Of a DNA stretch of 64,000 bases, positions 6,134 through 51,396 are shown in pieces. This DNA comes from Alphaproteobacteria bacterium (GTDB taxonomy: Bacteria; Pseudomonadota; Alphaproteobacteria; G965222575): the NCBI GenBank assembly GCA_965222575.1, contig OZ244958.1:768001-832000 (forward strand), written 5' to 3'. A model generated the notes under the pieces. That model was not told the DNA's origin. It ran no database searches and saw only the letters and a program-made list of their open reading frames with translations. Made by a program: the position numbers and the translations under genes. Every line of letters begins with the position of its first letter. Within the stretch, counting starts at the first letter, position 1.

Positions 6134-6207
6134 GCACCCGTAGCTCAGTTGGATAGAGCACTGCTTTCCGGAGGCAGGAGTCAGGGGTTCGAGTCCTCTC
6201 GGGTGCG
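6134..6207 (+). tRNA. tRNA-Arg(CCG), no encoded CCA
   Basis: GCACCCG/CGGGTGC acceptor stem, TAGCTCAGTTGGATAGAGC D-arm, anticodon loop TTCCGGA, GGTTCGAGTCC T-arm. Confidence 0.93.
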
Positions 6208-6210
6208 TAA

Positions 6211-6285
6211 GGGCAATTAGCTCAGAGGAAGAGCACTACGTTGACATCGTAGGGGTCACTGGTTCGAGTCCAGTATTGCCCACCA
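6211..6285 (+). tRNA. tRNA-Val(GAC)
   Basis: GGGCAAT/ATTGCCC acceptor stem, anticodon loop TTGACAT, GGTTCGAGTCC T-arm, CCA end followed by a T-tract. Confidence 0.95.
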
Positions 6286-8689: not shown

Positions 8690-8794
8690 GGCACATGGGG
8701 TTCACAGATTAGGGATACCCCTCATTTAAAGCATAAAAAAGTTATTCAGAAGTAAGTGTTGTGTCTCTTCAGGAGAAAAAGAAAGGGGGTGACG

Positions 8795-8821
8795 ACACAC
8801 ACACACACTATATATATAGTG
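8795..8821. repeat. Compound microsatellite (AC)7(TA)5 containing the 16-bp palindrome CACTATATATATAGTG
   Basis: AC x7 at 8795-8808, TA x5 at 8809-8818, palindrome at 8806-8821. Lies in the divergent intergenic region. Confidence 0.9.
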
Positions 8822-8980: not shown

Positions 8981-11900
8981 GTGTTGATTTTCGGTAAAAT
9001 TCATGTCAGCATAGCAAGACGGAGAAATTCTAAAAGAATCTTAATGAAGCTTTCTTTATTGCCTCATGGCTTTTGTGGACAATCCTTTTTAAAAGGGATG
9101 TTCAAGCTTGCCTGTGTCTTCCTGCTATTTGGAAGTGCGCCAGTCTTTGCCTTACCTTCTTTGAAGTACGGGCGCCCCGTAGACGGAGAAAAAATTAAAA
9201 TTACCAAACCTGCCTCTAACACAATGAACGTGGAGCAAACGGAGCGTCTTGCTGTGATTCATTGGGGAGAATTTACGGTAGGAAATGGGGAAACAGTCAA
9301 TTTTAAAGGCCCCTTGGACTCTGTCATTGTGAATCGTTTTACTCTGGATAAGAACTGGTACAGTAGCAGTCTTAGAGAGACGGATAAAGCTTATTTCAGG
9401 ATTGAGGAGGGGGGTACGGTTACTGGTAGCCTGAGACAAACGCTTGTTTTTGTAGCGCCCGCTCAAGATGTGCACTTAGCAGGACGAATAGACGCTCACT
9501 CTCTGCTCATCACCACCTCAGATTTTGTACATTTTACAGATGTCCTTAAGGAGCAGGAAGCGAAAACGATTACCTCTTCTACAAACTTTTTTCCGGCAAT
9601 AGGGGCAAGAGCTGCTCAAACATTGGCCGCGCGAGGGACAATTACACTTGCAAGTACCGCGGTGATTAACGTTGCAGATGTTGGGCAAATTGCCCTGATT
9701 TCCCCAAAAATCACTATCAACTCCCCAACTATCACCTTCTCTAAACTCTCGAAACAAGACTATCAGATTAAGGGTCTGATTCCAGGAGGGAAGCAACTCC
9801 TCTTAAGCACTGCGCAGTCTTTTACTTTTGATATCACCTCATCAGCTGTTGAATATGCAGAAGACTTAGACCCAAGTAATACTATTACGGAATCTGTCAA
9901 TGTTTTTCAAATCACCAATTGGTTTTCTAGGCAGAAAATAAAGAGTGTAACGGGGGATATAACGACATGGTTGATTCCTAAAATTGATATAAAAACAGGG
10001 ACGAATCTCGTAGCACAAGAAGTGCTTGTCTATTTACCTAGTACGCCTGCGCCATCATCTCCGGAGTTTTTATTAAACCCGGGCGCTTCCATTCAGGCGA
10101 ATCATCTCATTGACTTTCAAGGAAGGGGGGGATTGACCTTCGGCGGTTCCCTCATTATGGAGGGAATTTTAGGCAAAATTCAGATTGAAGGGAGCAGTTT
10201 CAGCTTACCTAGCGGCGGTAAAATTGAACAAATAGTCCCAACAGGGGGGCAAACAGCCGAGATTTTCATCAATATCAAAGGGAAGAGTGTGAGTAGTGTT
10301 CCTCTTGGAGAGAAGGCTATGAAAGGTGGTAGTAGTTCTACGAGTAGTGGCGGGAAGGTTGTTATAAGCGGAGCACACCCTACTAGAGGGGTGGGCATAA
10401 CCCATATCACAGCCGGGGACTTTTTGCACTCAGGGTCTTACGAATCCCATGTGGGTACCATTACACTTCATGCGAAACATGACCTGAGGATACTAGGAGG
10501 GACAGTCAAGATTACGGCAGGCACGGGAGAGGCTTCCATTAAACTGAATGCGGACTATGGAATGTATCTCAATGCAGGTGCTGTGCTGGATATGAGCGCG
10601 CGGGAGGGTAAAACCACTTTTTTCCTACAAGCTTTTAGTTCTATACTCCTGTTCAATAAATTTAAGACGCAACTCCAGGATAAGGCGGACCCCAAGGTGT
10701 TCTTTCACCTAGATAGAGGGGAAGGTATCGTTTTGCAAGGACAGAGAATCAAGCCTATTTATGTGGATATTACCTTTGAATACACGGATAGTACCGGCCT
10801 GAAGACGTTGCGCTTCCTGCCTGCCTTGCATGAACCCGTGAAACCCGAGCCCGTTTTTGTCCATTACGGCGCCGACCAGATGAAAGGGTTTCGTGTCCAA
10901 AATTCTGTTGATGCCAATAGAATACAACATATAAAGTTAATTACCGAATCTCTCAGTACACTGAAATTTGAGGCTCCGATCGATCTTTTTCGTAAAAAAG
11001 GACAAGTTGCGAAGCCGCGCTCTGTAGCCGTTTTCAAGTTTCCAACTTACCAACTCATGGTGGTAGGGTTACCTAGTCTTATACGCCCCTTTGGGGAGAC
11101 ATTAATTGAATTGCAAAAAATACAACAATCTCAAGTCTATGTTTATAAGTCCTACAGTTCAGGTGGGGCGGATACCTTTAAGCTCTCTCAAGTTCTATAT
11201 TCTCCTAAGCCACAAAGTGCTTTTGGTTACTCTATAGCCTTGTCTTTGCATGGTGGTCTTTTGTACTTAGCGGTGGGGGCCCCAAGATTTACGCATGGAG
11301 ACGGTAAAGCAATGGGGGCTGTGTTTCTGTACGCCGCTCGGGAAGGAGATCATTTTAACGAGGAGCAGGTCATCCGCATTGACAGAGAAACCATAGGATG
11401 GCAAGGGGGAAACGAGGATTTCCTCCTGAATTTAGGAGTTGATGTAGATTTTGATGGTGAGAAACTGTATGTGATTAATAATCACTTATTTGATATACAA
11501 ACCATCCTTCCCGCCGGAGCCGACCATCCAGCACGATATAGTTTTTCCTCCCTTTTTGTCTTTTCTCTCAATGGCGCGGGCGCAAAGTTGGAGAGCGTCT
11601 ATCAGTTTCCTCTTAAAGGCTCATCGTTAAGTTTGGATTCCTATTTCACTCTTCCGGAAGCGGTAAGGGTAAGAAACGTGGACTTATATGCTATAGACGA
11701 CAGGGAAAGGAAAGGCTTTTTCAATCACCCTTCTACCAGTGGGTTTACGCATTTGTCTGTTTACAATGGCGTTGTGGCTATTAAGGTTCAAAACTACGCC
11801 GAGTCTTTACTGGTAAAATCAGACGGCGCTCTCCCTACAGGGGATATTCCTTTCTATGTCCAAACAGATGACCAAACAGATGAGGAACAACAACTACAGC

Positions 11901-14900
11901 AACTAAAGCAACTACAGGAAAGCTTTGTATTCTTGCTTAGGACGGCGACGCCGAAAAAACCCCCGAAGGTGGTTTTTCAGCTACCTAACCAGGAGGTAAG
12001 GGGGCATGAGTTCCTGTATTACAATGACCACCATAGGGTAAGTTATCGATTTCTCGACCTAAGATTTGAGGGTACCTTAGGGATTATCTTATTGCCTTCT
12101 TCTGCTGGTGGGTACTCCTTAATCCTACAGGATGGCAGTGGCGTACGGTTTTTAAATCTCAGACCTGATGGATTTGACGATGGCTCTTTTGTCATCAGTC
12201 GCGTCGGTAAAAGTTCCTTTGTGGAGAGTTTTTTCTTTTTGGGCAAAAGTAAAAATTACGAAGGAGAAACCTATGGTATTGGAGTGTTTCAAGACATTCT
12301 AGGGGAGCTGTCTTTTGTCACACTCTCGCCTACGAATAAAGGGGTTATCTCTATTTCTTCTCCTGAGGTAAAAGACAGTATTGGGACGCAGGTGCTATCG
12401 AATTTCAAAAGCCTAGCGGTTAAGGCTTTAGAAGACCAGTATCTTGTTGCGCTTGGGAATGAGGAGCAGTTTGTCTCTCTGTACAAGGTCAGAAAGAGTC
12501 AGAATATCTTGGATATGGCCAATGTGGAATTGCTATTTGTTGTTTGGAATAAGGCGCCGGGCTTTGGGACTTCCTTAGCGTTCGGAGAAAAAGACTTATT
12601 TGTGGGGGCGCCTAATCAAGAAGGCGGGGGAACGGTTTATGCCTATAGACTGATAAAAGGGGATGCACTAGGGGATTTTGCCCTTGGAGCGCCTGTTGAT
12701 TTGTTGGAAGGATTAGAAGAAAGTTATACGGGGTTTGCAAGTGACCTCATCATAGGGGGTAGGATAGCCTTTGATTCCGTTCAGAAGTACTTAGCTATTT
12801 CCGCGCAATCTTCTGACCCTTACGGCACGTCGGCTGTGGGGGTTTTCTCCATCAATCAAGAGGACATAGGCATAGAAAGCAGAGTGGTCTTGATTATAAG
12901 AGGAGGGGCATCTTCTTATGATTCTCTTCCCTTTGAGTTAGGGTCTTTTGTAGGGTGGAGTGGAGATGGCAAGCTCTTAGGCATAAGTTCTCAGAAAAGC
13001 AGTAGCATTTATCTTTTTGATGGGACCTCCTTTGAGTTGAAAGGAAAAATTGGACAATATGATTCGTTGCTTTCTCTTCCGCAAAATCCATTTCTTTTCA
13101 GTTCATTAGAAAATTTTGCTTTGAGTGAAGGGTTTAGAGGTCTGTACACTTTATATGTTGCGCAATCGGAGAAAGTTTTTGTTTATCCTTTGCGGTATGA
13201 GCGCGGCACATTAGTTTGGGAGAAAGAGGGTAAACGTCTTGAGCATAAGCAGACGGATTACAGCTTTGTTTCTGTTTCCGGTCAGGGGCTATTGATTTTG
13301 GATAAAGCCACAGATGATGTCCACTTTCTCAATTTTCAAGCTGATGATATTAGAAAGCAAAGTTTGTCTGTCCTTAAGGTAAGTTTTGATCAGTATTATT
13401 TGGCTATAGGGGAGCCTTTTTATGATTCTAGCAAGGGCAGGGTCATGGTCTATGAGGATGGTGTTGCGGATTTTGCAATGTTACGATTTCAGTTTCAATT
13501 ACAGGGGGAAACTAAAGGGGACTTATTTGGCTGGTCTGTGGAGTTATTACTTGAGGAAAATGGACGACCTGTTCTGTTTGTAGGGTCTCCTCAGGTGACA
13601 GGTAGCAGGAGAGGTGTTGTGCAAGCCTTTTCTCTTGCGGCGTCACTTCAGACTAGTGACCGGGCTCTTTTCACTTTATCCCCATCCCCTAGCATTGAAG
13701 GCGTGAAAGGCTTTGGGTACAGTGTGTCCGCTAAGGGGTCTTATCTCTTGGTGGGGGCGCCGCAGACCAATGAGAAGGGGATGGTTTTCCTGTATCACAA
13801 TGATAACGGCTATACCCTCCAAGGCACCTATGACCTTGATGAGAAGGAGGAGATAGTGGGTTATGGCAGTAACGTTGGGCTGTTCCTTCATGATAGCAAG
13901 CACTATGCTTATGTTATTGGATATAGAGATGATGGGCAAGAGGGAAGGACGTCAACAATATCTCTGTTGAGGGAAGGTGTTGATGTGGCAAGCGGCTTTT
14001 CTTATGTTCCGCATGAGGATGTGGGGATGTTGTATGATTTTGATAAAGAATTGGGGGCATTCTTTTCTTTCAGTGGGGACGTTTCTGAGACCTACTTGGG
14101 GGCATTCGGTCTTGTTGGTGGTAGCACGAAAATCTTACGGTATCAGTTAGCATTTGATGCTCAAGGAGATTTTACTGTTAGACTTGCAGGCACGCCGGCA
14201 AGAGCGCCATCAAACACTGTTGTAATAAGGGGGTTCACCTCTTTATATAACCCCTCTTTGATAGACTTTGATGTGCTGGAAAATCGGTTGATGAAGGATC
14301 ACCTCTTTTTCTTCGTGGTCAACAATGTGGAGATTTTCAAATTAGAAGAAGAAAAATTAAGAGAAGAAGAAGATGGCTTGTTGCAAATTGTTAATATTAG
14401 AACAGGCGTTCAAAAGCAGGAAAAAAGAAGTTTCGATATTTTCAGGGACCCTGATACGCGGAAGTTATATGTAGCAGTAGGAGAGCCTGCTATAGGCTTA
14501 CCCATTGTGGGGAAAGTAACAGTGATGGAAGCCTTCGGTAGCAATTTTGAAGATGCGCAAATACGCTTTACTTTACAAGGTGAGGAGCTAGGGGATTACT
14601 TTGGCTGGTCTGTGAAGTTTCATCTCTTAGAGAAGCATCAAGAGAAAGATCAACTGGCGCTTTTTGTAGGGGCGCCTCAAGCGGAAGGCAGGGGACTGGT
14701 GAAAGTCTTTTCTCTCCAAAAAGAGGAACTCTTCACCCTAAGACCTCCTGAAGTGACCAAAAAAGAGGATGGAAGTCCTTTAGCTATCAGTTCTTTTGGC
14801 TATAGCATTAATGCTATAGAGAGAGACCTTCTCATTGGCGCGCCAGCGACTGGAAAATACAAGACAGGGGCTGTTTTCTTATATAAATGGGTAAAGGATA

Positions 14901-47900: not shown

Positions 47901-50900
47901 TGACAGTGTTTAGGGCTAGACAGTCTGATTTCTCAGATGGCACACTAGACTTTCAGTTAGAAGTGAAGGAAGAATTGGAGAGTGATCTTGGTACGGAAAG
48001 CTGGTTTGGCTGGTCTGTGAAGTTGCATCTGTTGGATAAGGACGGAGCGGGTGATACCCCTGATGAGCCGGTCCTCTTTGTAGGCGCGCCTCAGTGGGGT
48101 GTTGGGATTGTGAAAGTCTTTACCGTCGCACCAACAGAAGATGCATCACGCGACCTTCAAACCTTAAGTCCGCCAATGGACATTCCAGACGTTGTGCCTC
48201 AAGCCTTTGGCTATAGTATAGGAGCTATGGAAAACAACGTGATGGTAGGTGCGCCTAAAACTAATGAGGATAAAGGTGCAGTCTTCTTCTATACATGGAA
48301 TGTCTCGAATCAAGAATATGAACTCAAAGAAGCGGCTTTTGTTGGGGTTGCTCCTACAATAACCGGCGTTGTAGTCCATAAGATGGCAGGGACTATCGCT
48401 CATAGTGGTGCTGCTCTGATTCCTGCTCAATTCGGCGCTGAAATAGGGGCTTTCGTCTATGATAGTATGATTAACCCTGTCTATCATCCTGATGTTGCTA
48501 GCGATCATGCTGATTATCGTTGGATTGCCTCTGAAAGCTCTAAACGCAATCGGTACTTGTATGTAGTGGGATATCATGCTGACCATACAAAAACCATCTT
48601 GTACCTCTTTAACAAACAAGATGATGGGACCTTTACACAAGTCTCATCAGAAGACCCTTCCAACCCTCCTGTTCCACAGGTGTTTGATAAAGAGTTAGGC
48701 TCCTTCTTTACTTTTTATGTGCAAACTGTATGGGAAGTGTACTTAAGTGGTGTTGTGAATAGAACTCGCTGGTATTACTTTACTGAGACGCAAGCGAGGG
48801 CTCGGGCAGTAGCAGAAGATAAAAGTAAACACCCCATCTTCAGTGCCTTCGACCTTTATAGCTTAGGAGCTTTGAATAGCGCAGGGGAAATGGAATACTA
48901 TACACTTCCACTTGACCCGAAAGTAGGGGTAGGTGAGGAGATTACCTTTAGCGGGGACGCTAGCTATACACGACCGGTAGATGTTGTCTCTAGTAAGCCC
49001 ATGGCCTTTACCGAGAGAGGGGCTGTGTCGTTAAAGAGTATGTTGTCTGTCAATGACAAGGCATTTACTTCTTTATATTATTCTTCTAGGGTGGTACTGG
49101 ATGTTTTGAGGTCTTCTTTTGGGGAGAAGCTTTTCATGACGTCAACGCTTAGAAAGTTCAGCTTGCAACAAGATGAGTTTGAGATTGACAACCCAGCCGG
49201 TGCTGATGGTGTTATTACGACCTTGACATACAGCTTAGGGAGTCAAGCACCTTTGGCAGTGTCCCCGACAGTAAAGGAATTGATTGCGCCATTTCAAAAG
49301 CTCTCTTTCTTGAAGATGGATGATGCTCTCTTTTATTTGGCTGTGGGCACACCCGGTGAGGTGACGGTGTATCAATCCTTAACGCCAGACTTTGATGAAG
49401 TCGAAGAAAAATTCCGTATACAAGATAAACGGGATGATTGGTTTGGCTGGTCTGTGAAGTTGCATCTCTTGGACAGAGACGGAGAGGGCGATAGTTTCGA
49501 ACTTGAACCTCTCTTATTGGTAGGGTCTCCGCAATGGATATCGGGGATTGTGAAACTCTTTGTCTTTACGCCGACTGGCAGTCGTGAATTCGACACCATA
49601 CCCCCACCTTCCATTGATATGCTTGTTGTTAGAAGCTTTGGGTATAGTATCGGGACACTAGGTGGCAACCTTGCCATAGGGGCGCCAAAAACCAATGAGG
49701 ATAAAGGCGCGGTGTTCCTCTATACATGGAACGTTGATTATCAAGAATATCAACTCAAAGAAGCGATTTTCGTTGGCGCTAAACCTGAGATAGACGATGT
49801 TATAGTCCATGAGATGGCAGCGACTATCACTCATCGTGGCTTTTCTCTTGAGCCTATGCACTTCGGCGCTGAAGTCGGAGTTTTCGCCTATCAAAGCTTT
49901 ATAAATCCTACTTATTATCCTCTCCTTACAGGGGAGCAAAGCTTAAGCCCAGATTATGCAGGGATGACTGATAGTGGCCATTCTCTTAACGCTAACTATT
50001 TCTATAGCGTTGGGTACAATGCTGCTCGTGATAAAACACTCTTGTACCTCTTTGCCAAACAAAATGATGGAACATTTGTACAAGTCTCATCAAAGCCCAC
50101 TATGCCGGCGATACCTCCAGCTCCACAGGTGTTTAATGAAGAATTAGGCTCCTTCTTTACTTTCTATACGTACACCATATGGGAAGAAGTCGCGTTGAAG
50201 GAGTTGACGACAGTTGGAAGTAGTGGCTTTGAAGTTAAAAGTAGTGGCTTTGGGTATTACAAGACAGAGGAAGCCGCTAAGGCTAGCGCACAAATTGACA
50301 GGAATGTCCTTAGTGCTTTCCATCTTTATAGCTTAGGGGCTCTTGATAACGAAGGAAAGATGCAATACTATACCTTCTCATTTTATCCAAGACATTATCG
50401 TGCGGAGCATGACTTTACTGGTCAAGAAGGTTCTTACAACGTTAAAATTGACATTGGGTCTTATCCTGAGAAAAGAGCGTTCTTCGGCTATCATGGGAAA
50501 GTGGATTTGAGTCTCCCTGAATTTGGGGCAAAATTCACGTCTTTGTATTACCCTGATAGGGTGGTATTGGATGTGGTAACAGGACAAGACCTTTCCGAGA
50601 GCGTTTTCATGATTTCAACGATGAAAGTGTTCAAGTTAGAGATAAAAACGTTAGAGGTCCAAACTAGGAGCAGGAGAATAGCAAGTGGAGGGTTGGAATT
50701 GGTGTTGAAAGAAGAAAGCCTGTCGCCATTAAGGTCCTATGAAGCACCAGCATCGGGAAGAGTCATCACCAGAAGCTTCCAACCAAAAAGCTTGTTTACA
50801 AAAGCCTCCTCAACAACGCTTAAAAAGTCTATAGAGAGACAGTTTAAGTTTTATGATAATGTTCTGGAAACAAAAGAATATGAGGTGCCTGTTCATCGAG

Positions 50901-51307
50901 ATATTGAGAATCGTTATAAGACAGTCTATAGGACAGCTTATAACCTACAGCAAAGGCTTCTCAATAGGAGGACAACCTTGTTTGGCAATCAAAGAACATC
51001 GGTTCTGTCGGATTTTTATCGAGGAGGGAAGCTATACATGCCTTTAGCGGGGGATTTTATAGGCATGGGTGGTCAGATAAGAGGTTTTAGAAGGGTACAG
51101 GAGATAGTTGGGGAAGACTATTATGCTGATGGAGTAGGGGATGTGGAGAATAGAGGTGTGGTTCTTTACAAGTTCCAAGGACCTGTAGAAAATTCTGATA
51201 GGGGTGTTTGGACTGAAATTGAGGTTTTTGAGGAGGAAGAAGCTGAAGAGGATGTGGAGCCTGATATCAAGATTGATGTTTTGGAGGAAGAGAAAGACGA
51301 GGAGTAA
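8981..51307 (+). CDS. Giant (~14,100 aa) secreted/surface protein: signal peptide, FHA/TPS-like N-terminal domain, ~29 tandem FG-GAP beta-propeller modules, acidic C-tail
   Basis: Uninterrupted 42.3-kb ORF. Signal peptide ...KLACVFLLFGSAPVFA|LP suggests a true start at 9044 or 9098. It is followed by LP...MNVEQTERLAVIHWGEFTVGNGETVNF...VIVNR (haemagglutination-activity/TPS-like). Repeated FGWSV...LFVGAP...FGYS...L.VGAP...GAVF.Y motifs. Confidence 0.9.
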   Translation: MLIFGKIHVSIARRRNSKRILMKLSLLPHGFCGQSFLKGMFKLACVFLLFGSAPVFALPSLKYGRPVDGEKIKITKPASNTMNVEQTERLAVIHWGEFTVGNGETVNFKGPLDSVIVNRFTLDKNWYSSSLRETDKAYFRIEEGGTVTGSLRQTLVFVAPAQDVHLAGRIDAHSLLITTSDFVHFTDVLKEQEAKTITSSTNFFPAIGARAAQTLAARGTITLASTAVINVADVGQIALISPKITINSPTITFSKLSKQDYQIKGLIPGGKQLLLSTAQSFTFDITSSAVEYAEDLDPSNTITESVNVFQITNWFSRQKIKSVTGDITTWLIPKIDIKTGTNLVAQEVLVYLPSTPAPSSPEFLLNPGASIQANHLIDFQGRGGLTFGGSLIMEGILGKIQIEGSSFSLPSGGKIEQIVPTGGQTAEIFINIKGKSVSSVPLGEKAMKGGSSSTSSGGKVVISGAHPTRGVGITHITAGDFLHSGSYESHVGTITLHAKHDLRILGGTVKITAGTGEASIKLNADYGMYLNAGAVLDMSAREGKTTFFLQAFSSILLFNKFKTQLQDKADPKVFFHLDRGEGIVLQGQRIKPIYVDITFEYTDSTGLKTLRFLPALHEPVKPEPVFVHYGADQMKGFRVQNSVDANRIQHIKLITESLSTLKFEAPIDLFRKKGQVAKPRSVAVFKFPTYQLMVVGLPSLIRPFGETLIELQKIQQSQVYVYKSYSSGGADTFKLSQVLYSPKPQSAFGYSIALSLHGGLLYLAVGAPRFTHGDGKAMGAVFLYAAREGDHFNEEQVIRIDRETIGWQGGNEDFLLNLGVDVDFDGEKLYVINNHLFDIQTILPAGADHPARYSFSSLFVFSLNGAGAKLESVYQFPLKGSSLSLDSYFTLPEAVRVRNVDLYAIDDRERKGFFNHPSTSGFTHLSVYNGVVAIKVQNYAESLLVKSDGALPTGDIPFYVQTDDQTDEEQQLQQLKQLQESFVFLLRTATPKKPPKVVFQLPNQEVRGHEFLYYNDHHRVSYRFLDLRFEGTLGIILLPSSAGGYSLILQDGSGVRFLNLRPDGFDDGSFVISRVGKSSFVESFFFLGKSKNYEGETYGIGVFQDILGELSFVTLSPTNKGVISISSPEVKDSIGTQVLSNFKSLAVKALEDQYLVALGNEEQFVSLYKVRKSQNILDMANVELLFVVWNKAPGFGTSLAFGEKDLFVGAPNQEGGGTVYAYRLIKGDALGDFALGAPVDLLEGLEESYTGFASDLIIGGRIAFDSVQKYLAISAQSSDPYGTSAVGVFSINQEDIGIESRVVLIIRGGASSYDSLPFELGSFVGWSGDGKLLGISSQKSSSIYLFDGTSFELKGKIGQYDSLLSLPQNPFLFSSLENFALSEGFRGLYTLYVAQSEKVFVYPLRYERGTLVWEKEGKRLEHKQTDYSFVSVSGQGLLILDKATDDVHFLNFQADDIRKQSLSVLKVSFDQYYLAIGEPFYDSSKGRVMVYEDGVADFAMLRFQFQLQGETKGDLFGWSVELLLEENGRPVLFVGSPQVTGSRRGVVQAFSLAASLQTSDRALFTLSPSPSIEGVKGFGYSVSAKGSYLLVGAPQTNEKGMVFLYHNDNGYTLQGTYDLDEKEEIVGYGSNVGLFLHDSKHYAYVIGYRDDGQEGRTSTISLLREGVDVASGFSYVPHEDVGMLYDFDKELGAFFSFSGDVSETYLGAFGLVGGSTKILRYQLAFDAQGDFTVRLAGTPARAPSNTVVIRGFTSLYNPSLIDFDVLENRLMKDHLFFFVVNNVEIFKLEEEKLREEEDGLLQIVNIRTGVQKQEKRSFDIFRDPDTRKLYVAVGEPAIGLPIVGKVTVMEAFGSNFEDAQIRFTLQGEELGDYFGWSVKFHLLEKHQEKDQLALFVGAPQAEGRGLVKVFSLQKEELFTLRPPEVTKKEDGSPLAISSFGYSINAIERDLLIGAPATGKYKTGAVFLYKWVKDRQFYRLEQGFFMLEIKPEAVKRTWNVSSTSYESSAAQASPPNEHLKIQGMGSSHVLFRDLIHVSGVEMEVERFGSEVGFFDFEERRFFFAVAYDVQDNGVKKTLLYAFKKDDNGVFAKIPPQQREREDSRQDQNDVFYSSAQTYSVYFSGQHPDNPQGKKIRDDTAIGPMKVLPGEYVGFFTFFVSDLWRHLPSERIPARYGGRYYSEIFTGRTVSQGSVGTGSLIRYRVIGAIKLGGGKGELKYFSIGSTKNRDGIKTLREGNINLDIPGSEGLSSLYNTGLVTLRVLDSSGINLNGSLFITSEMKMFRLSLNTEIFYIGGNPMSTQAGFRLKDYRATKGKSSYSMVLTLVEGREEVGTRVLELLKGTSLQISELGAEEIKWFVGDRRKTSISVLKKSGVTFFLAVGEPFVSKGRVTVFRSSEQDFSDGREVFSLENPSKDGLFGWSVKMHFLDRDGIGIGLPEPVLFVGAPTDPEAKASTYKGEVHLYSFGKNDKGEYDYAPLQTLGLEYGYEALDLRGFGYALAAVRSSLIVSVPTSYKSLGTIFAHGGLFVYHWDNDKYVLKRTELMFTGAVPRPTAPGVVFSHRTSIGGVNRNFGAEVGAFIYFESDYSKDPKYQENPYTIVDPWVAHSVDGTYYWGINRKGGSQGDFLQRDDARAYYQNYFKGTPHFYTAAYNADSSKTVLIFFRVGADGGVDFTQEKELDGEVGSFFPFRHKVWHSANRSSSYYNLWYTSDIYVWKNDANSRLYLHNVPVYLNVIGGLTYTAEEKGELMLITLRLPQQPYPKDHNSASITQITKQTTTLSLDTLSLGVGFTDAYNPSKVSIDVVDGAKINEHVFVTTKLETFRLGYAIGGVGVRHAGKGPITLVPSLQGAHEAFKLREKVEETRTRVVFLNPQARAEGVSLPNKVALPGPDQELLIFQGIASISVLKASAHKFYLALGDPTDNSNTGKAVVFEMGHYDFSDVQKTFEVEGSAAGDWFGWSVKLQLLDRDGGGAGLPEPVLFVGAPKAKNGKGSVEVFDFKKKILIQTLSPEASLTYVRAFGYSLGGGIYKKRQFIRGPPVTEDEEEVHNYLLVGAPASVQSDSVDTQDGAAFVYKWNNGEGAGGATVPGAYELKGVARPPDGSHITVGSVVEGQLPDSATVGGVDVALSVYNEHFGASVGFVNYDSIPLLYVVSYNSDRTGTAISAFQLLSSGTDAVSYGGTLSKVVEGEYGAFFTLPIQAWEVSYFEGSAQYKWFLSETEADTFTLPVDSLHEKTEKTAIDVLGFLVRGIGGDLTVKYGVVNPNAGGIDFQSPEIKINTGIGVLVGFTTLYRTTNKLSFAALRDRLLIGQGVEVYIAPLTVNDEKNITIGSLQTVATPAITFTEVTAIDVLKESDNKFYLAVGEATDTSEKGKVTVYEGTDSAFADIAVKFTKSGDSEGDRFGWSVKLNLLDKDGAGSGTPEPVLFVGAPKANSEKGYVKVFNVDVSGSFIQTIKFAHKTFNKIALFGYSIGARGEHLIVGMPGSIRGGKPSGGAIALKWNTLSKRFKLGKVYLYITDNAHYGGTSVGVFMHNNTTPYFYYAHYSPSSSATVIRLRKYDGGHKNLEGTEKDDGVVYGSLFTIPVEKSDGSSTELLGLLYKDGDQLKIKYASLAVTHPRSKRNLLPSLGDIDIPGDVVAGFTLPETYDTDPMPRRWSFAALPGRLFMGHGDKVYVASLTVPSVSLRGIVGETSRRVESVTFDIENIRKASLPLGKVAKVVFDEISSLSVLRVTDSKFYFAVGESGFEDFTGRAVVFESKDSAFSDIMQKFVIKGDNAGDWFGWSVKLGLLDKDGAGAGLPEAVLFVGAPQVGVPQAQAKGLVQIYTVRSKGKLQTIEPTSNDNRAFGYSVGGGLHENSGSSFLVVGAPHKTLQSTTGGKVYFYEWKAGQYILKEAFESSSSSDTNFGFAVGSFLYSTTPYFYVADTRTTSIVLSFYQVRGNDVLVKRLETYRNGAWWKVSYEEEGAQVYEWYSLESEADARVMALGAASPSVQAQKVAYTGDTGEYGSLFTIPVSAWKVSYEEGGAKAYEWYSLGSEATDRVTEIGGSASAQEGYVEVLGLLYKDGLQLKSKYAALSFTTPGSLLADLGEIDIPGIDIPGDVVANFGSPSTYFVDVASTAVPRRLSFAALPDQLFVGTGSSVQISALTPSNLEVIRSSDTSSSMKVSGVLVNNGIKSLSLTANGGVADVLFLVEEEEEAATISFTEITSIDVLEFDDNGVDKFYLAVGEATANNERGKVVVFEGSNSEFADIAQKFNLKGNNAGDWFGWSVKLNLLDKDGAGSVNAPEPVLFVGAPKVNNGIGYVKVFDFNKRVIQTIRFAHGAVDIKLLGYSIGARGEHLIMGAPGTTHGTYTIGAVIYGKWNTATKLYTMKISVYAHTSRVYFGNEVGIFLHATPYFYATYYYSPGKYTTVRLFKYDSGNYLRDVRREGVRFEYGSLFTIPVEKSDGSSTELLGRLYKDGAQLKIKYATFNPLLTTGRFLEDRGEIDIEGDVVDEFTLPPTYDNDPMPNRWSFAALPGRLFIGNAAGVRSALLTVDDTSNPWTITLGSFVQAVGTPVGTTVAPVAPVAPPPFTFTKITSISVLKFADNKFYLALGEAGGDDSKGKVVVFSAADSAFASSQQSFHVSGQSAGDYFGWSVKLQLLDKDGGGSVNAPEPVLFVGAPKANSGVGYVKVFGLDGSKIAKITPPASNVRAFGYSLGGGIYKNRQGSSRNVNPNTMTQAQVEASLNPFDIREVTEKVENYLLVGAPESVNTDNTQVGAVFVYKWFNGGDKGFYNFSMTITPSQATALPSTDGRHFGASVGYFSYSSWGLHIYVVSYNSTHTRTAISTFRFSGSLYYRDNLSKYNIVGEYGAFFTLPVQALKVSYLAWYAPGGASEKFDFSWSAPAPTMSQPITHLPGWKMGDSGESFRKSGLALKTEEDSIEVLGFLVRESGSLKIKYGFVDETAGIGISVNAQSSDISITTETPVDVGFTGLYESKPSFAALPDNLFIGHGEKVYNATLNATAVIKAQARRLESVTFSIDSPAELTLPPVVALDFTEITAIDVLKVADKFYLAVGEATVNSNTGKVTVFEGPDSTFADIAQTFMVEGEADEERFGWSVKLHLLDKAGNGTLVPVLFVGAPKATIGSTSGAGYVKVFDVVVGDGVDRNIQTITYVSADATTQVSLFGYSIGARDEHLIIGAPGTTYTSTSSVTTTIGLIRFLQWDTTNSEYGGIQETVIEDGSRYLYYGASVGTFLDNTKPYFYATQRFGTSTVIRLYEYITVDGSYESVKQTIGGADAKFEISLDGIEYSSFFTIPVEKSDGSSTELLAFLHKDGGQLKIKYALLDVTLTSGFLDYRGDIDIPGDVVAGFAIPETYDTDPMPSRWSFAALPGRLFIGYGTELRNTSLTGVDEQIPPPPPTAPTAPTAPTAITFTGITAIDVLKESANKFYLALGDSTDNSNTGKVVVFEGTDSEFSTLTQTFEVLGDNAGDWFGWSVKLALLDRDGDTATLSHEPVLFVGAPKATLGGTSGVGYVKVFDISGSAIKTITPLNSRAYNWPNVLTVAATSPTSLANVRAFGYSVSGSMHTTPAFVRSIPGGMAAAESYLFVGAPESYSGEGAVFVYRWSGGVGLPYEAPGGEYALKGVVSPTVISDLNDNVYSSLSKIPAGGSAWSADYSNHFGASVGYNVYRGKLSLYVVSYNSGHTETALSAFDVSGNAYFLIPESTKVEVGEYGAFFTLPVVENTESYTVLGFLVRDSGLKIKYALQSASGISFQSADITIPTGTGITDVGEKFTNLYTTTNKLSFAALTDKLFIAQGTGVKRTSLTASGITIVSGGGTVYINAVSFNIGNTMETLIGQAPTAPTEPTAITFTGITAIDVLKESANKFYLALGDSTDNSNTGKVVVFEGTDSEFSTLTQTFEVLGDNAGDWFGWSVKLALLDRDGDTATLSHEPVLFVGAPKATLGGTSGVGYVKVFDISGSAIKTITPLNSRAYNWPNVLTVAATSPTSLANVRAFGYSVSGSMHTTPAFVRSIPGGMAAAESYLFVGAPESYSGEGAVFVYRWSGGVGLPYEAPGGEYALKGVVSPTVISDLNDNVYSSLSKIPAGGSAWSADYSNHFGASVGYNVYRGKLSLYVVSYNSGHTETALSAFDVSGNAYFLIPESTKVEVGEYGAFFTLPVVENTESYTVLGFLVRDSGLKIKYALQSASGISFQSADITIPTGTGITDVGEKFTNLYTTTNKLSFAALTDQLFIAQGTGVKRTSLTASGITTGGSSSSGYYITGVEFTIGSTMETLIGQAPTAPVAPVALAPLALPVAFTGITAIDVLKESANKFYLAVGEAADNSNTGKVVVFEGTDSAFAGIKQTFEVKGGAPEEWFGWSVKLFLLDRDGDTVTLSPEPVLFVGAPKASPTIRGTVTSGVGYVKVFDISGGDIQTITRPFYDADSQVRLFGYSIGARGEHLIVGMPGLEYSGSGTIGLISFWKWKISSINPSLSQYDMSQEFLAGGITYLGAQVGAFMHTTTPYFYATNATSSGGTTIKLYQPAGNGYAQIVLQETGVEYGSFFTIPVEKQDGSSTELLAFLHKDGGQLKIKYATLDVTLASGFLEYRGDIEIPGDVVDDFSLPPTYDTDPMPRRWSFAALPGRLFMGHGAELKSTLLTVDDTSWSITLGTETEPTAVTFTGITAIDVLKVADATAGDKFYLAVGYPTDTNDKGKVTVFEGTDAEFATLTQTFEVLGDNAGEWFGWSVKLSLLDRDGDTVTLSPEPVLFVGAPKATIGSTSGVGYVKVFDISGGDIQTITPLNFKDYVTLTLITDLTYVRSFGYSVSGSVIESASHSRYRKESYLFVGAPASTHNNVEEGAAFVYRWNNAANGEYQVKSLIRPTANSHGAGITTAYNMVPQVPSVSPWSPDYSNHFGASVGYNVYRSELYLYVVSYNSNRTETALSAFVVSSHWWAFHQGSYSKVEAGEYGAFFTLPVVENTESYTVLGFLVRDSGLKIKYGVIDPSRRSPNKWLVFQSADITIPTGTGITDVGEKFTNLYTTTNKLSFAALTDKLFIAQGTGVKRTSLTASGITTGGSSVNRYYITGVEFTIGSTMETLIGQAPTAPTEPTAPTAITFTGITAIDVLKFADDKFYLAVGEATDTNDKGKVTVYEGTSSVFSNIKQTFMVKGDNEGDRFGWSVKLNLLDKAGDDIFVPVLFVGAPKASSGKGYVKVLNIDETSGFGISGFEIQHLALSFEIDNTYQPPDVLTGKGKNKQLTTPPLSRFQLSPGLFGYSIGARGDHLVVGMPGTTITRDSTEVSTGAVVLLKWDTGNSEYVIGQIPGALNTDSDDERTMVLERGNANAIFYDYDIESLRFGTSVGTFLHNTTPYFYATHDKKEASSAAYWRTYKVVGTHIRLFEYTTSRVVLNADGNPISIDRELYEFNTERMGGQAQAQQSPLSQAQGPKYGAFFTIPVEKPDGSTTELLGYLYQDGSQLKIQYETFFDINNRRKFLKPRGEIEIPGTVQVGDFTLPSTYDTNPGYILSRVSLVALPGRLFIAQGAEVKSTPLTVTSDWSVVPLGKFVQLGGVDEITVGGQIIIPPTAPTAPTEPTAPTEPTAPAVTFTGITSIDVLKFADATAGDKFYLALGDSADNSNTGKVVVFEGTNSMFSDIAQTFEVKGGATEDWFGWSVKLQLLDKDNTTATLPPVPVLFVGAPKANSGAGYVKVFDVVVNGGDRNIQTIPAPASMRAFGYSLASGLYTSTSLISRRARRLPKQKHSGSYAVDNHLFVGAPESYSGAGAAVMYKWSTLSGGSYSSPLEVRVNNVSGTHRDDSVSTNIRTNYGNHFGVSVQYLHYTTWEAILLVMSYNSSRTGVAMSVFYPDARYQFRLSDIIGGTSSGKYGPAFPLPVKVWRVTVLVDGTTRWAYQFLDKAALDKALPNMHNAHKLKSFSSTRVEKEHFINAFGFLYREANGALKIKYAAARLGNTGGPKGINPQTPDIPITGMKAVGANFADLYETTDKLSFAALPDQLFITQGDKVYITPLTSSNVVLEGFDGGAVGSPIELVDSPTFQLYNVLKSVSFSIDPPEVLPLSSASSDGGQTTEPTAPTGPVTPVEPVEPVAVTFTGITAIDVFKESDNKFYLAIGEAGGDASKGRVVVFKGTSSTFADIAQTFKVEGAEGEWFGWSVAIGLLDKDGGADAYAPEPVLFVGAPKAQGQGIIGVYTLNDKTHLQDVTIPLNQGSHWGYNVDGGFHAGTRKSYVFGNTASTSGTQWAFAQVWRPNASDPKGGSYVSGAYGSRQIKSRQMGGFNAVSLFSDSVAPHFLVSGYTRSYGTEATGYKHRSRLEALSFTGILHIKGSVLPVRSRRYNFFFTIPVQKADGSSTEMIGFLYKDGTQLKMKYAAVDFTNTRTGGGEPLLGQNPLTFSADSSDIVIDTGTAVPDVLFGNSVFNVTNKLSITALEDKLFIAQGDTVWSADLTVVSSGSPGSPPIITIESLESVDFSPPPPAITFTGITAIDVLKVADNKFYLALGDSADNSNTGKVVVFDGTSSTFADIKQTFEVKGGATGDWFGWSVKLQLLDRDGAADVFSPEPVLFVGAPKANSGEGIVKVFAFDETVIQTLTPAGITRPVIKAFGYSLDVTDPRIRASYLIIGAPESEHSSINKGAVFVYTWKIDATTSSNSAYDLRAVFSRNVTPAGVIPYSRGVSINAPGPIQRYLGAEVGAFYMGDDKARFYASAYATDRSAGTTIVFFHAEDASDTARVRQYVKGTRKHSVSYKKSGNDEYEYGSFFIIPVTASNGDELDILGVLFRDPSDGALKSKYATFRPPPSGALGLTEFLTGEISLDMDTVTSVDAGFTTLYTTTNKLSFAALEDKLFIVQGDKVYRASLAPNNLASKADVSTLTFTVGDLAEESFVEGKMKVKFTQMTAISILKVADDKFWLAVGDPGDSSNTGKVVVFEGTDATFSDLEQKFKFTGDKVGDSFGWSVKLHLLKDNTGSVLTSMLFVGAPKVSRTISRTISGVASEVASEGIVRLFLLNPNTYSAYTPAILPMATFSYNDGTSKNILVGAFGYSLQTITYNEDNFLIVGAPETYNGEGAVFFYKIEPTSVVLKQVFFVGNKPTLTTSVTTVTVGQVTLKDGAYNKHFGAEVGAFLYNNTPYFYAASHNDVSHTGTALHFFQRQDDSTISQFLQGDQPYGEVYDAAEYGTFFILPVQLWSLTYQNGIEWYKTEAEAEEAKSGIGGTIASESIDVFALLKSNGFLTIKTFFRDADRQGFIASSGEEFDISGFLPTVLADGFTGLYAPSKVSILLLENRLFVAQGTGIKTQSFSSTVLLNPFVTSLNIASRASQVETLTLTSADEQVPVIGKEESSVFTKITAISVLKTTDKFYLALGDPAGDATIGKVLVFEGSDSAFSDIKQTFEVTGAMGDWFGWSVKLQLLDRDGVGSASLPEPVLFVGAPKANSGVGYVKVFAFDETQTVIQTLTPAGVTAPVIQGFGYSLDAKSHPLFRFSHLIVGAPETNGGKGAIFIYRWQDRQYVLKGVFAIEATPIVPVGVDKGMVALKEAAYNEHFGAEVGAFYFDSTFPRFYAVSYNSGHTGTSIQFFFSNASGGKTGAIRSTVYSGVEYGSFFTIPVKVWKIESSFRGGTEEFFASREEAIKRSLVLLGQDEKPETSVKTVSLDILGVLKREDDGSLKSKYATFFPVAGSLTTFLNGAIPINTGTSVDVGFTTLYAPSINKLSFAMLTDKLFIAQGTSVYSTSFTVHRTVTFAVEKDLKPVVFPTVFRFTEITALSVLKFADDKFYLAVGDPTDTSNAGRAVVFEGTNAEFSDIAQTFIVEGDNAGDWFGWSVKLQLLDRDGAGDSGLPEPVLFVGAPKAPSSTGTSEVGTVKVFAVAVADGVDRNIQTIRAPPALTYVRAFGYSLAGGIHATTNNYLFVGAPKSTHSGTEQGAAFVYKWNGSTAYELKGIARPTAASFGTSGSVFTSNPTGDSAWHVAYNRHFGASVGYLNYHNWGVHLYVVSYNSNHSGTAITFFGSDDTQLLYRKNLTSKNYQEHGAFFNLPGGQVNPVEAFGFLNRDPYGNLKIKYGIMKGDLNTGATSQLRIDYQSTPDTSIDTGTDVGARFTTLYRTTNKLSFAALTDTLFVAQGANVYSASFALNPSSTTQKLAITAKVDVVTFTRITAISVLKFTDDKFYLAVGEVADSSERGRVVVFKGPDSVFSDIHQIFEVPGDNDGDWFGWSVKLQKLGSEPVLFVGAPKANSGVGHVRVFSVDDSQRVIQTIKPPIYSMFYVRAFGYSLAGGIHATTNNYLFVGAPLSMLDGVEQGAAFVYKWNGSTAYELKGIARPMAESYGNVPASVRTGNPSGAPWHDDYSNHFGISVGFVISYSVPYLYVVSYNRERTETALSAFNLSNDNVRYLGNRSKVVTGEYGAFFNLPVEKSGQLYEILGFLVRDSGLKIKYGVVNWQQGGVHFQSPDISIDTGTDVDAGFTNPYEINNKLSFAALPLLARQKPGQLFIGQGTSVKRTSFGELPSDGDDNPYDDVTPWLRVSSSIGVTRVRFVRGDDLVEMELSSGGRETEAVSFTEITAIDVLKFAEDKFYLAVGEATVNSHRGRVVVFEGTNAAFAGVKQRFTRIGDEVGDMFGWSVKLQKLSSDPVLFVGAPKASSGVGHVKVFGLDGADIQTIRLTALTYVRAFGYSVDGGIHERISGGVTTTNNYLFVGAPASTHNNAEEGAVFVYKWDSGTYALKGVARPTAGSHGSVGSAASAHPSGSAWDADYSNHFGASVGYANFRGEPHLYVVSYKSEHTKGTAITVFGIDNADALLYRDNLTSVHREAYGAFFYLSLGQVNPVEGLGFLFREENGDLKIKYGVMKGDISTGTIHYQSIYDTPIDTGTGITDVGAEFTDLYAATNKLSFMPLADILYVAQGQNVYTTSFALNPLSTTQLIFVAKGKDFTTITSISALKFADDKFYLAVGDPHDSDSNKRGRVVVYEGPDSEFSTLTQIFEVAGENEGDWFGWSVKLSLLDRDGGADAYAPEPVLFVGAPKASSADGATSGVGYVKVFGIKGDEIQDIPPPADLTYVGAFGYSVSGGFFTSRYSGYYLLVGAPKSTHTAPAPAPGGVGVVGGSGTVTEEQGAAFVYTYGENNGEYELMGIARPTAGSHGSGDLPRNVLGAPELVDWLGRPIRDPVWDVNYRYHFGASVGYFLALGRDTTPYLYVLSYNSNRTGTFMSAFTLSSRGRARVEWDEDSSTPITGEVGAFFILPAKETYRDYNRDIGRWEFLVREISFFGFLVRDIDSGLKIRYGIGGGGVLFATSDTIPTGTGVTDVKDVGEKFTTLYRTTNKLSFAALPDQLFIGQGTNVYHTAFGATKLPNPDNPPILGFTIGSIKTLIEPAESGDLIDGLTGIASISVLKVAANEFYLAVGDPTDNSNTGKVTVFEGTDSMFSDIKQTFDVVGEAEGDWFGWSVKLGLLDRDGDTVTLSPEPVLFVGAPKAQLVDRGLGIIKVYTIRDEQLLQSVTVSDAGEWADNAFGYSVDGGFHVGTSKSYLIAGAPKVTSADASNEAYAFIMEWNPSSGSYELSQTFTSSEPKFGSEVGIFLSSPVPYFYAKSHPASATTKITFYEKGSNDEKGSKTLTGNFGSFFTISIQLADGRDAEALGFFHPQSESLEIQYADVDLTATGEDILTESGAISISTEIPVGAGFTNIYETDRIAFALLENGLFIGQKTAVQRVILTVNVLQKMTIKPLVELDLFSQTAGVSFTGVASISVLKTIDKFYLAVGDPADSDYSGKVTVFEGTDSEFSDITQTFDVTGHGDWWFGWSVKLGLLDRDNEGTTHAPEPVLFVGAPKLRISDSYGLGVIKVFTLKINTLGSRFLQDVTIDAGGNWDDNAFGYSVDGGFHAGTSKSYLIAGAPRVNPTDTGNKAYVFIMEWIPEAAAANSKLGSYQLSQTFTSFTSTEPKFGSEVGIFLSGAVPYFYAKSHPASATTKITFYGKGAKTLTGHFGSFFTIPVQLANGRDTEALGFLNRKEDGALEIQYADVDLTARGKKILTERGAVSIETEIPVGEGFTKLYDTTDRIAFAALENRLFIGQKTAVHNVLLTVDSLQKMTIKPLISTLPSRSKTAISVLKVANGEFYLAVGEPTVNKNAGRAVVFGGRDSAFSDIRQTFEVTGATGDWFGWSVKLHLLDKDGNGTFVPVLFVGAPKATTGAGYVKVFDIVGAEIQDILPQNGTVLAFGYSIAATGDHLAIGAPQSSRGRGNIAFYKWDTATTAYTFQNAFTFFEARVHGAEVGAFLYNDTPYFYSTSYSDDSTTIRFFQYENNSYILSHTQTYQGEYGSFLNIKVKTKTRTQTSEEVLGVLLREPDGSLKIKYAAFYGTETQDFATFQEIPMNRKAETSFKTLYTTTNKFSFAALPDQLFIAQGASVYRTPLTLLTLVLKDQALKVENLGFPIGALAQQNFDIKATIGEKTITSTQGLSFSVLKVTDELFYLAIGDPSRNGKVVVFEGVYADFSSSQQKFQLEGEIPGSWFGWSVKLDLLDKDGAEGAGLPEPVLFVGVPKINKNTGLVKIFSIMPDSIRELHFLKSPVLESLADISVEAFGYSIGALGQYLAIGAPQTNEDKGAVFFYTWNVENQRYQLNEAAFVGVNPTITDVVVHEMAGTITHSSASLAPMHFGAEVGDFSYKNMISPFLAGNLSRAPDYYRNNDYFYSVGYNADHTKTILYLFHKQDDGDDVTFTQVSSKDPSDPPAPAPQVFDEELGSFFTFHVGPIWEVWTSKQGQLSRRLSETLPRGGGDTFFSALQLRSLGALTSDGAVKYYLSLFHPRTSGTIKLEVDEEGALTVTQKFALPSKDDFKSILIKEVSSATPENASFVPQLLSLPLYGILPGRNFTSLYHPARVDLNVLEGDYIGEHVFFAGLKTFRLQQKGDIAVSAVAATVNLFVKSDPSSVNLPFAYEKVETEDFQSLSALQVRDDLFYLAMGYPSVVTVFRARQSDFSDGTLDFQLEVKEELESDLGTESWFGWSVKLHLLDKDGAGDTPDEPVLFVGAPQWGVGIVKVFTVAPTEDASRDLQTLSPPMDIPDVVPQAFGYSIGAMENNVMVGAPKTNEDKGAVFFYTWNVSNQEYELKEAAFVGVAPTITGVVVHKMAGTIAHSGAALIPAQFGAEIGAFVYDSMINPVYHPDVASDHADYRWIASESSKRNRYLYVVGYHADHTKTILYLFNKQDDGTFTQVSSEDPSNPPVPQVFDKELGSFFTFYVQTVWEVYLSGVVNRTRWYYFTETQARARAVAEDKSKHPIFSAFDLYSLGALNSAGEMEYYTLPLDPKVGVGEEITFSGDASYTRPVDVVSSKPMAFTERGAVSLKSMLSVNDKAFTSLYYSSRVVLDVLRSSFGEKLFMTSTLRKFSLQQDEFEIDNPAGADGVITTLTYSLGSQAPLAVSPTVKELIAPFQKLSFLKMDDALFYLAVGTPGEVTVYQSLTPDFDEVEEKFRIQDKRDDWFGWSVKLHLLDRDGEGDSFELEPLLLVGSPQWISGIVKLFVFTPTGSREFDTIPPPSIDMLVVRSFGYSIGTLGGNLAIGAPKTNEDKGAVFLYTWNVDYQEYQLKEAIFVGAKPEIDDVIVHEMAATITHRGFSLEPMHFGAEVGVFAYQSFINPTYYPLLTGEQSLSPDYAGMTDSGHSLNANYFYSVGYNAARDKTLLYLFAKQNDGTFVQVSSKPTMPAIPPAPQVFNEELGSFFTFYTYTIWEEVALKELTTVGSSGFEVKSSGFGYYKTEEAAKASAQIDRNVLSAFHLYSLGALDNEGKMQYYTFSFYPRHYRAEHDFTGQEGSYNVKIDIGSYPEKRAFFGYHGKVDLSLPEFGAKFTSLYYPDRVVLDVVTGQDLSESVFMISTMKVFKLEIKTLEVQTRSRRIASGGLELVLKEESLSPLRSYEAPASGRVITRSFQPKSLFTKASSTTLKKSIERQFKFYDNVLETKEYEVPVHRDIENRYKTVYRTAYNLQQRLLNRRTTLFGNQRTSVLSDFYRGGKLYMPLAGDFIGMGGQIRGFRRVQEIVGEDYYADGVGDVENRGVVLYKFQGPVENSDRGVWTEIEVFEEEEAEEDVEPDIKIDVLEEEKDEE
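25201..27840 (+). repeat. Near-perfect 1320-bp tandem duplication of one module
   Basis: Lines are identical at offset 1320 (e.g. 25261 vs 26581) over about 25219-26367 vs 26539-27687. A few substitutions follow, then divergent tails. Confidence 0.93.
31703..31765 (+). repeat. 9-bp (CCAACAGCA-type) repeat encoding a Pro-Thr-Ala/Glu linker; representative of the inter-module linkers
   Basis: PPTAPTAPTEPTAPTEPTAP. Similar tracts occur at about 22641-22700, 25181-25228, 26519-26548, 27841-27895, 30259-30298 and 33213-33274. Confidence 0.88.
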
Positions 51308-51320
51308 GAGACTTTTCTTC

Positions 51321-51396
51321 TGGTGGAGCCAGGCGGAATCGAACCGCCGACCTCTTGAATGCCATTCAAGCGCTCTACCAACTGAGCTATGACCCC
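51321..51396 (-). tRNA. tRNA-Ala(GGC)
   Basis: Reverse complement GGGGTCATAGCTCAGTTGGTAGAGCGCTTGAATGGCATTCAAGAGGTCGGCGGTTCGATTCCGCCTGGCTCCACCA, with G3:U70 and CCA. Confidence 0.96.

Follow-up and report, generated by a model that had tools for sequence, protein, structure and literature searches.

The window analysed here is a 64,000-nucleotide stretch, positions 768001-832000 of C1, the single contig of an alphaproteobacterial genome of 1,215,846 bases that is 97.6% complete. Within it lies a gene for a protein of 14,108 amino acids (aa), which is probably an unusually large exoprotein of the TpsA type, exported by two-partner (type Vb) secretion, with an array of β-propellers as its passenger and multivalent binding of a host or another surface as its likely role. 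This proposal draws on an intact reading frame, a repeat array predicted to fold as propellers, an N-terminus remotely homologous to two-partner secretion (TPS) domains, a TpsB-like gene and a paralogue elsewhere in the genome, and a mature chain free of cysteine. The gene, which alone takes up 3.5% of the 1.216-Mb genome, is divided as follows (window coordinates; TpsA denotes the exported partner and TpsB its outer-membrane porin).

8981..51307 (+), open reading frame (ORF) of the giant protein including the stop codon; mature product ~1,524 kDa, isoelectric point 5.19
9098..9151 (+), aa 40-57, signal-peptide-like segment, MFKLACVFLLFGSAPVFA followed by LP, read by eye and alignable with signal regions of TpsA proteins
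9122..9889 (+), aa 48-303, divergent TPS-like secretion domain, its recognisable core at aa 75-122 (window 9203-9346)
9890..11176 (+), aa 304-732, β-rich stretch following the TPS-like domain
11177..13351 (+), aa 733-1457, degenerate FG-GAP-like region with two partial module matches and weak matches to integrin α4 and α6
13352..50701 (+), aa 1458-13907, array of 29 contiguous predicted propeller modules of 352-544 aa each
25247..27910 (+), modules 10 and 11, a tandem duplication and the only recent one (97% identical in amino acids, 94% in DNA over 1.7 kb, with at least 300 identical bases)
50702..51304 (+), aa 13908-14108, C-terminal region of no known family, ending in a 25-residue acidic tail (window 51230-51304)

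Both in the ORF list and in our own translation, the gene is one open frame of 14,108 codons that starts with GTG and contains no internal stop, whereas the remaining five frames of the same DNA have 440-1343 stops. Random substitution of 1% of its bases introduced 10-24 stops in 20 simulations. Set against these two figures, the absence of stops indicates that the frame has been held open by selection. The GTG start is a mechanical call, and in-frame ATG codons at 9044 (M22) and 9098 (M40) also lie ahead of the signal-peptide-like stretch. GC content (0.43-0.48) and GC skew within the gene are similar to those of the flanks. A preliminary description, made from the bare letters of the window, had reported a single 42.3-kb ORF for a secreted protein of about 1.5 MDa, and both the frame and the size agree with our results.

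The same description had counted 29 modules marked by the motif FGWSV. We found 29 occurrences of this motif, 352-544 residues apart, and a hidden Markov model (HMM) of the 29 modules returned 29 full-length copies (independent E-values 2e-81 to 4e-145), whose envelopes follow one another without a gap from aa 1458 to aa 13907 and make up 88% of the chain. The beads-on-a-string layout that had been proposed follows from this gap-free tiling. The module HMM also gave two degenerate partial matches, at aa 733-801 (independent E-value 6.9e-7; window 11177-11383) and aa 1165-1292 (9.8e-4; window 12473-12856), in the region at about 11.2-13.0 kb where degenerate FG-GAP sets had been noticed. Proline-rich linkers (APTAP, PPPP) separate several of the central modules and the last 25 residues are strongly acidic, both as previously described. 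At the C-terminus, neither Pfam nor NCBIfam gave a match for the last 268 aa (window 50501-51304), and the last 209 aa (window 50678-51304) gave no lead in the ESM Atlas, where the best score was 0.77. HisK_sensor (PF18698), which appeared in Pfam as summed weak matches with no single significant stretch, was disregarded.

To predict the fold of a single module, we modelled module 5 (aa 3333-3730) with AlphaFold2 (AF2), using the other 28 modules as the alignment. The model was all-β and propeller-like, with a mean predicted local distance difference test (pLDDT) of 81 and a predicted template-modelling score (pTM) of 0.86, and DSSP assigned to it 24 strands in six groups of four, followed by a C-terminal two-strand hairpin. 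As read from the secondary-structure string, the module is apparently six-bladed, with a closed ring. A Foldseek search of this model against the PDB returned 706 matches at E <= 10 and 77 at E <= 1e-3; those listed were mostly β-propellers by title, with six- and seven-bladed structures mixed at the top. They included six-bladed sialidase and pseudaminidase structures (2w38, 3h6j) and the integrin αV, α5 and αIIb heads (4o02, 1jv2, 9ckv, 3fcu; E 2e-5 to 5e-5), as well as the fucose lectin AAL, polysaccharide lyases, glycoside hydrolases of families GH145 and GH93, paramyxovirus attachment heads, and WD40 and clathrin propellers. Template-modelling scores (TM-scores) were <=0.50, with root-mean-square deviations of 7-14 Å. 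The fold class of the predicted module, a β-propeller, is thus clear, and the model points to no specific family. When the module profile was compared with itself, blades A-D showed a repeat offset by ~65 residues (92%). Conservation among the modules peaks in the first three blades; large insertions occur at four loop positions, after residues 140, 181, 234 and 260 (module 5 numbering), and the columns that are invariant across all 29 modules hold Gly, Phe, Trp, Pro, Val, Leu and similar residues, typical of a structural core.

At the sequence level, FG-GAP_2 (PF14312) scored 56, 29.6 and 33.1 bits on three large pieces beyond residue 1400, above its cut-off of 23, and 8 of the 29 single modules matched it at E <= 0.01 (module 5, 21.4 bits). 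The motif D-x-D/N-x-D/N-G-x-x-D, which forms the Ca2+-binding loop of integrin-type FG-GAP repeats, has no match in the 14,108 residues, while a D-x-D-G/N remnant follows FGWSV in 22 of the 29 modules. The modules had been described as integrin-like FG-GAP propellers: the relation to FG-GAP holds by family score, model and structural neighbours, but the likeness to integrins stops short, with apparently six sheets in place of seven blades and no full Ca2+ loop.

We then searched the module profile against 1.84 billion representative proteins, which gave 17,664 matches at E <= 1e-3, 2,806 at E <= 1e-10 and 45 at E <= 1e-30, the best FG-GAP_2-rich proteins reaching 3e-69. Among the best 150 matches, only P0001-P0008 and P0020 match it from the first blade onward (profile position 3-8) or span most of the module. 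They are partial sequences of 152-1,447 aa, share 55-96% identity with stretches of the giant protein and represent the same gene in related assemblies; terminal modules in them are 92-96% identical and central modules 55-83%. The remaining matches of the best 150 span only about profile positions 30-250, corresponding to generic FG-GAP blades. No relatives of the module were found in genome contigs, searched with a single module or the 29-module alignment, or in metagenome contigs.

Four of the best 150 matches (P0049, P0092, P0037 and P0143; 1,557-2,561 aa) have both a clear TPS domain (76-111 bits) and FG-GAP_2 repeats (123-367 bits). A further protein of this kind is encoded in the same genome, at C1:429861-442451. 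This 4,196-aa paralogue has a TPS domain of 73-77 bits and FG-GAP_2 at 85.8 bits, gives ten partial matches to the module HMM of the giant protein, and is 22-34% identical to its modules; within the degenerate region and just ahead of it, aa 716-784 of the giant protein are 36% identical to the paralogue. It keeps NSRGI at the site of the NPNG turn, its only cysteine lies within the signal peptide, and no tpsB gene adjoins it. Beyond the giant protein and this paralogue, FG-GAP_2 was not found elsewhere in the genome. The preliminary description knew of no characterised protein that joins TPS and FG-GAP in this way. The joining does have precedents: the domain profiles of these five proteins show the combination to be an existing architecture that is not unique to the giant protein. 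In a literature search of main texts outside subscription journals, no paper was found on TPS plus FG-GAP proteins, or on FG-GAP with filamentous hemagglutinin. What is particular to the giant protein are its scale, its lineage-specific, apparently six-bladed unit and its degenerate TPS domain.

By inspection, the signal region has a K-containing n-region and a hydrophobic segment, LACVFLLFGSAPVFA, followed by LP, and it can be aligned with the corresponding part of five TpsA proteins (the paralogue and four others), in agreement with the Sec signal previously noted. The whole protein has only two cysteines, at aa 32 and 45, so that the mature chain of 14,051 residues contains none. The N-terminal motif quoted earlier, ...QTERLAVIHWGEFTVGNGETVNF...VNR, is present at aa 86-119. 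The best sequence match of the N-terminus in the PDB was the TPS domain of EtpA (8cpk; E 1.1e-3, aa 73-164). Aligned by hhalign with five clear TPS domains (those of the paralogue, P0049, P0143, P0092 and P0037), the N-terminus gave a probability of 95.2% (E 2.7e-8, 212 columns), and 92.8% (E 4e-7) once the signal peptide had been removed; none of the controls (the reversed sequence, 15 shuffles and 4 internal 400-aa windows) exceeded 0.8%. TPS-domain clusters make up 26 of its 30 nearest neighbours in the ESM Atlas (0.91-0.92), which we treat as a lead and not as a test. Taken together, these comparisons suggest that the N-terminus is a very divergent TPS domain, related to TPS by remote homology only. 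Relatives of the N-terminus were not found among proteins of 5,500-17,500 aa, nor among proteins of 1,226-3,500 aa, the latter being weak evidence. The 40 nearest genomes on offer for comparison, none nearer than the same class, gave one weak match (E 8.4e-4); as a close relative of the giant protein it was rejected, being an ordinary 3,996-aa FHA-like TpsA without a module match.

A TpsA-type protein would need a TpsB partner, and the genome has a single gene of the ShlB/FhaC type, at C1:733722-735446 (574 aa; ShlB 25.2 bits, cut-off 22.7); the genome also encodes exactly one BamA, of 786 aa. The candidate carries a signal peptide and the motif FDMG and ends in FF at its C-terminus, and its only database relatives (22-24% identity) carry POTRA_2 and ShlB. 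According to the parts of PMC5422565 considered here, tpsA and tpsB are usually, though not always, in one operon, and some TpsB proteins export more than one TpsA. Because multi-substrate TpsB proteins and unlinked tps genes are documented there, a single unlinked TpsB serving both the giant protein and the paralogue is plausible. At C1:730147-733450, beside the candidate gene, three tandem genes code for paralogous, functionally unassigned secreted proteins of 287, 359 and 359 aa.

If the protein is exported in this way, the Sec signal peptide would deliver an unfolded, cysteine-free chain into the periplasm, where the divergent TPS domain would be recognised by the TpsB-like Omp85 porin encoded at C1:733722-735446, which probably also handles the 4,196-aa paralogue. 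The chain would be threaded outward N-terminus first and would fold bead by bead outside the cell. In place of a long β-helix, the passenger would consist of ~31 FG-GAP-related units joined head to tail (2 degenerate ones and 29 full, apparently six-bladed propellers), making a bead-chain that we estimate from typical propeller diameters at ~100 nm or longer. Its beads would have conserved cores and loops with large module-specific insertions, and the bacterium, whose genome is reduced, would most likely use it to bind protein or glycan ligands of a host or surface multivalently. We regard such an adhesive or ligand-capturing role as the most economical reading.

Like the known TpsA proteins FHA/FhaB, HMW1 and EtpA, the giant protein has an N-terminal signal peptide followed by a block in which the first part of the TPS domain is recognisable by homology, a very large cysteine-free chain built of repeats and presumed to be extracellular, and a TpsB-like Omp85 gene in its genome. 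Unlike them, it has a predicted chain of propellers as passenger where they have a continuous right-handed β-helix. FhaB has about 3,600 aa, roughly a quarter of the 14,108 aa found here. The paralogue and P0049, P0092, P0037 and P0143 share with the giant protein the order of TPS domain and then FG-GAP_2 repeat arrays, but their TPS domains are clear (73-111 bits), their FG-GAP_2 is canonical (up to 367 bits), they match only positions ~30-250 of the module profile and not the whole, apparently six-bladed unit, and they are 3.4 to 9 times shorter. The integrin α head resembles the module in its FG...VGAP-type repeat signature, in having αV, α5 and αIIb among the top Foldseek matches and in the weak sequence matches to α4 and α6; it has seven blades, whereas the module is predicted to have six four-stranded sheets and a hairpin, lacks a full Ca2+ loop and reaches TM-scores of <=0.49 with integrins. 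Giant extracellular proteins of Oscillospiraceae that are built wholly of RCC1 propeller repeats (bioRxiv 10.1101/2023.11.21.568195) are likewise made from one repeated propeller-forming domain, but this domain belongs to another propeller family and its owners to another phylum, and the passages of that preprint considered here do not mention a TPS-type N-terminus.

The modules recur in the DNA with a period of 1.1-1.5 kb. Most copies are 60-88% identical, and most modules differ by 40-75% in protein sequence. Type A (modules 5, 7, 9, 12 and 14) and type B (modules 4, 8, 10, 11, 13, 15 and 20-23) partly alternate across modules 4-15; smaller groups are formed by modules 24/25, 17/19 and 27-29, and modules 1-3 are only 23-35% identical to every other module. 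The ratio of nonsynonymous to synonymous substitution (dN/dS), a crude value here in that the Nei-Gojobori method was applied between paralogous modules and not orthologues, was 0.79-1.25 in 7 of 9 module pairs and 0.63 in the pair 17/19. Within types A and B most blades gave ~0.9-1.0, and the three C-terminal modules, 27-29, gave 0.27-0.48. Along the module, the proportions of nonsynonymous and synonymous differences (pN and pS) vary in parallel. These patterns suggest gene conversion, or concerted evolution, together with diversification of the central modules.

A number of results weigh against a giant TpsA-type adhesin. The Pfam TPS model (PF05860) reached 18 bits over aa 75-122 and 22.2 bits in a genome scan, under its cut-off of 33.5; an NCBIfam scan of the N-terminus, TIGR01901 included, gave no match. 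When aa 59-124 were left out, the hhalign probability fell to 1.8% (E 0.028), placing the homology signal almost wholly in that block, and on this evidence recognisable conservation is confined to the first third of the TPS-like domain. Neither NP.G nor N..G[IVLF] occurs in the first 700 residues; the NPNG turn is highly conserved in TPS domains and crucial for their folding and secretion, as stated in the parts of PMC5422565 considered. The AF2 model of aa 41-640, which extends into the β-rich stretch, was unusable (6-row alignment, pLDDT 41, mostly short strands), and the assignment of a TPS fold therefore stays sequence-based. Of the TPS/FHA-like N-terminus proposed in the preliminary description, a remote homology is thus what remains. 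As for the candidate porin, its gene lies 41.5 kb upstream of the giant gene, is not in an operon with it and adjoins neither candidate substrate, its POTRA_2 match reaches only 14.6 bits (cut-off 24), neither PDB nor NCBIfam gave a sequence match for it, and a VRGY-type motif was not found in it by pattern. Moreover, we know of no characterised TpsA with a propeller-array passenger or of such length, no binding partner is known for the giant protein, and the central dN/dS of ~0.8-1.25 could reflect relaxed constraint rather than diversification.

The sub-threshold TPS score, the missing NPNG motif, the limitation of homology to ~65 residues and the distance and high divergence of the TpsB-like gene are all what one would expect if the protein were exported by Sec but not by two-partner secretion, remaining in the envelope (in the periplasm or anchored by an uncleaved signal) or leaving by another exit, with the TPS-like block as a relic. 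We consider this unlikely, given that a cysteine-free chain of 14,051 residues suits unfolded passage and that the paralogue, whose TPS domain is clear, has the same overall layout. Other exits fit poorly. Giant RTX adhesins of type I secretion carry GGxGxD nonapeptides near the C-terminus and have no N-terminal signal peptide, but the giant protein has such a signal and no GGxGxD repeat; classical autotransporters (type Va) end in a 12-stranded barrel domain, but no C-terminal barrel family was found here, and the chain closes with an acidic tail and not with an aromatic residue. Were the protein secreted as proposed, it might still not be an adhesin; the propeller chain could serve as a structural coat or spacer, or work on host glycans as an array of lectin or carbohydrate-active type, since sialidases and pseudaminidase, lyases, GH145 and GH93 enzymes and AAL are found among the Foldseek neighbours at E-values like those of integrins. 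That alternative seems improbable to us: the 29 modules share no conserved acidic or basic catalytic set, their invariant columns are core-like, and matches with TM-scores of <=0.50 and deviations of 7-14 Å single out no particular functional family. Finally, the dN/dS values of the 7 pairs and of most A and B blades, and the co-variation of pN and pS, which is as expected of gene conversion, would also suit a near-neutral central array, a repeat expansion of little function that is heading for decay. The intact frame excludes strict neutrality, however, and even near-neutrality is very hard to credit for 42 kb without a stop or frameshift where 1% of random change brings 10-24 stops, for modules that mostly differ by 40-75% in protein, for modules 27-29 with their low dN/dS, and for an array whose fragments in other assemblies keep modules at 55-96% identity; in addition, a reduced genome of 1.2 Mb would be expected to shed 42 kb of useless DNA.

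Returning to the giant TpsA-type exoprotein, a bolder version of this reading can be put forward tentatively. In it, the protein would be the largest two-partner-secreted protein so far and the first with a passenger other than a β-helix, a chain of ~29 lineage-specific six-bladed propellers that would pass unfolded through one highly divergent TpsB; its central beads would be diversifying by duplication, gene conversion and loop insertion, and slippage in a promoter spacer (described below) would switch its expression, yielding a variable, multivalent host-binding organelle. Export through a TpsB pore would stretch the limits of type Vb secretion, as the pathway would be passing a 1.5-MDa chain whose passenger folds into closed propellers, not into a self-templating β-helix, behind a TPS domain without the NPNG turn. 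Together, the giant gene (42.3 kb) and the paralogue gene (12.6 kb) take up 4.5% of the 1,216-kb genome, and the investment of this share of a strongly reduced genome in two FG-GAP exoproteins suggests that they are central to its contact with a host or surface. The 29 diverged homologous modules also offer a natural series in which to follow propeller duplication and diversification.

The surroundings of the giant gene contain the following features.

8792..8820 (+), σ70-like promoter match (ACGACA-17 nt-TATAGT), the only one 5′ of the giant gene; 1 site against 0.7 +/- 0.9 expected in shuffles, not significant
51321..51396 (-), tRNA-Ala(GGC), 14 nt past the stop codon of the giant gene
6134-6285, tRNA-Arg(CCG) and tRNA-Val(GAC), upstream of the giant gene
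6695-8689 (-), divergently transcribed gene for a Gln/Glu/Lys-rich protein of 664 aa

The 17-nt spacer of the promoter-like match consists of the dinucleotide tracts (AC)7(TA)5 at window 8798-8817, an arrangement that can permit phase variation through slippage. No terminator-like hairpin was found after the giant gene. The giant gene and its 664-aa neighbour are together flanked by tRNA-Arg and tRNA-Val on one side and tRNA-Ala on the other. The neighbour matches no Pfam family and has only weak SMC-like matches, typical of coiled coils; it is probably a coiled-coil protein. The flanking genes that Pfam could name are all of the housekeeping type: an FAD-dependent oxidoreductase, a dicarboxylate symporter, a zinc alcohol dehydrogenase, an aminotransferase, and genes of the pgsA type, uvrC, hda-like and purM type.

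Among public sequencing runs, giant-gene sequence was present only as short Logan contigs (176-734 bases among the pieces listed), which are too short to bridge modules or to confirm the 42-kb frame. In two runs of one study, Logan contigs fill 30 of 30 bins of window 20000-39999, and these runs may be the source sample of the genome. No RNA run was listed among the public runs that hold giant-gene sequence. The contigs of one run (X2) over window 20000-39999 contain many joints that link distant modules, jumping 8-14 kb or about 9 kb backwards; these could be repeat-graph artefacts or strain variants with another module order, and we did not use them as evidence.

Farther upstream in the window, two adjoining small paralogous ORFs of 53 and 50 aa (5604-5914, -) each encode one hydrophobic helix (MNN.(I/T)L.WV...GGWFFLS.K.K). 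Just upstream of them, at 5300-5490, the peptide KLMSLVSVLCPCK recurs in the translated ORFs, suggesting a direct repeat in the DNA. Elsewhere in the genome, at C1:1129023-1132028 (-), a 1,002-aa ORF has an N-terminus that may resemble the RuvC-I motif of Cas9; such a gene would be unusual for a genome of 1.2 Mb.

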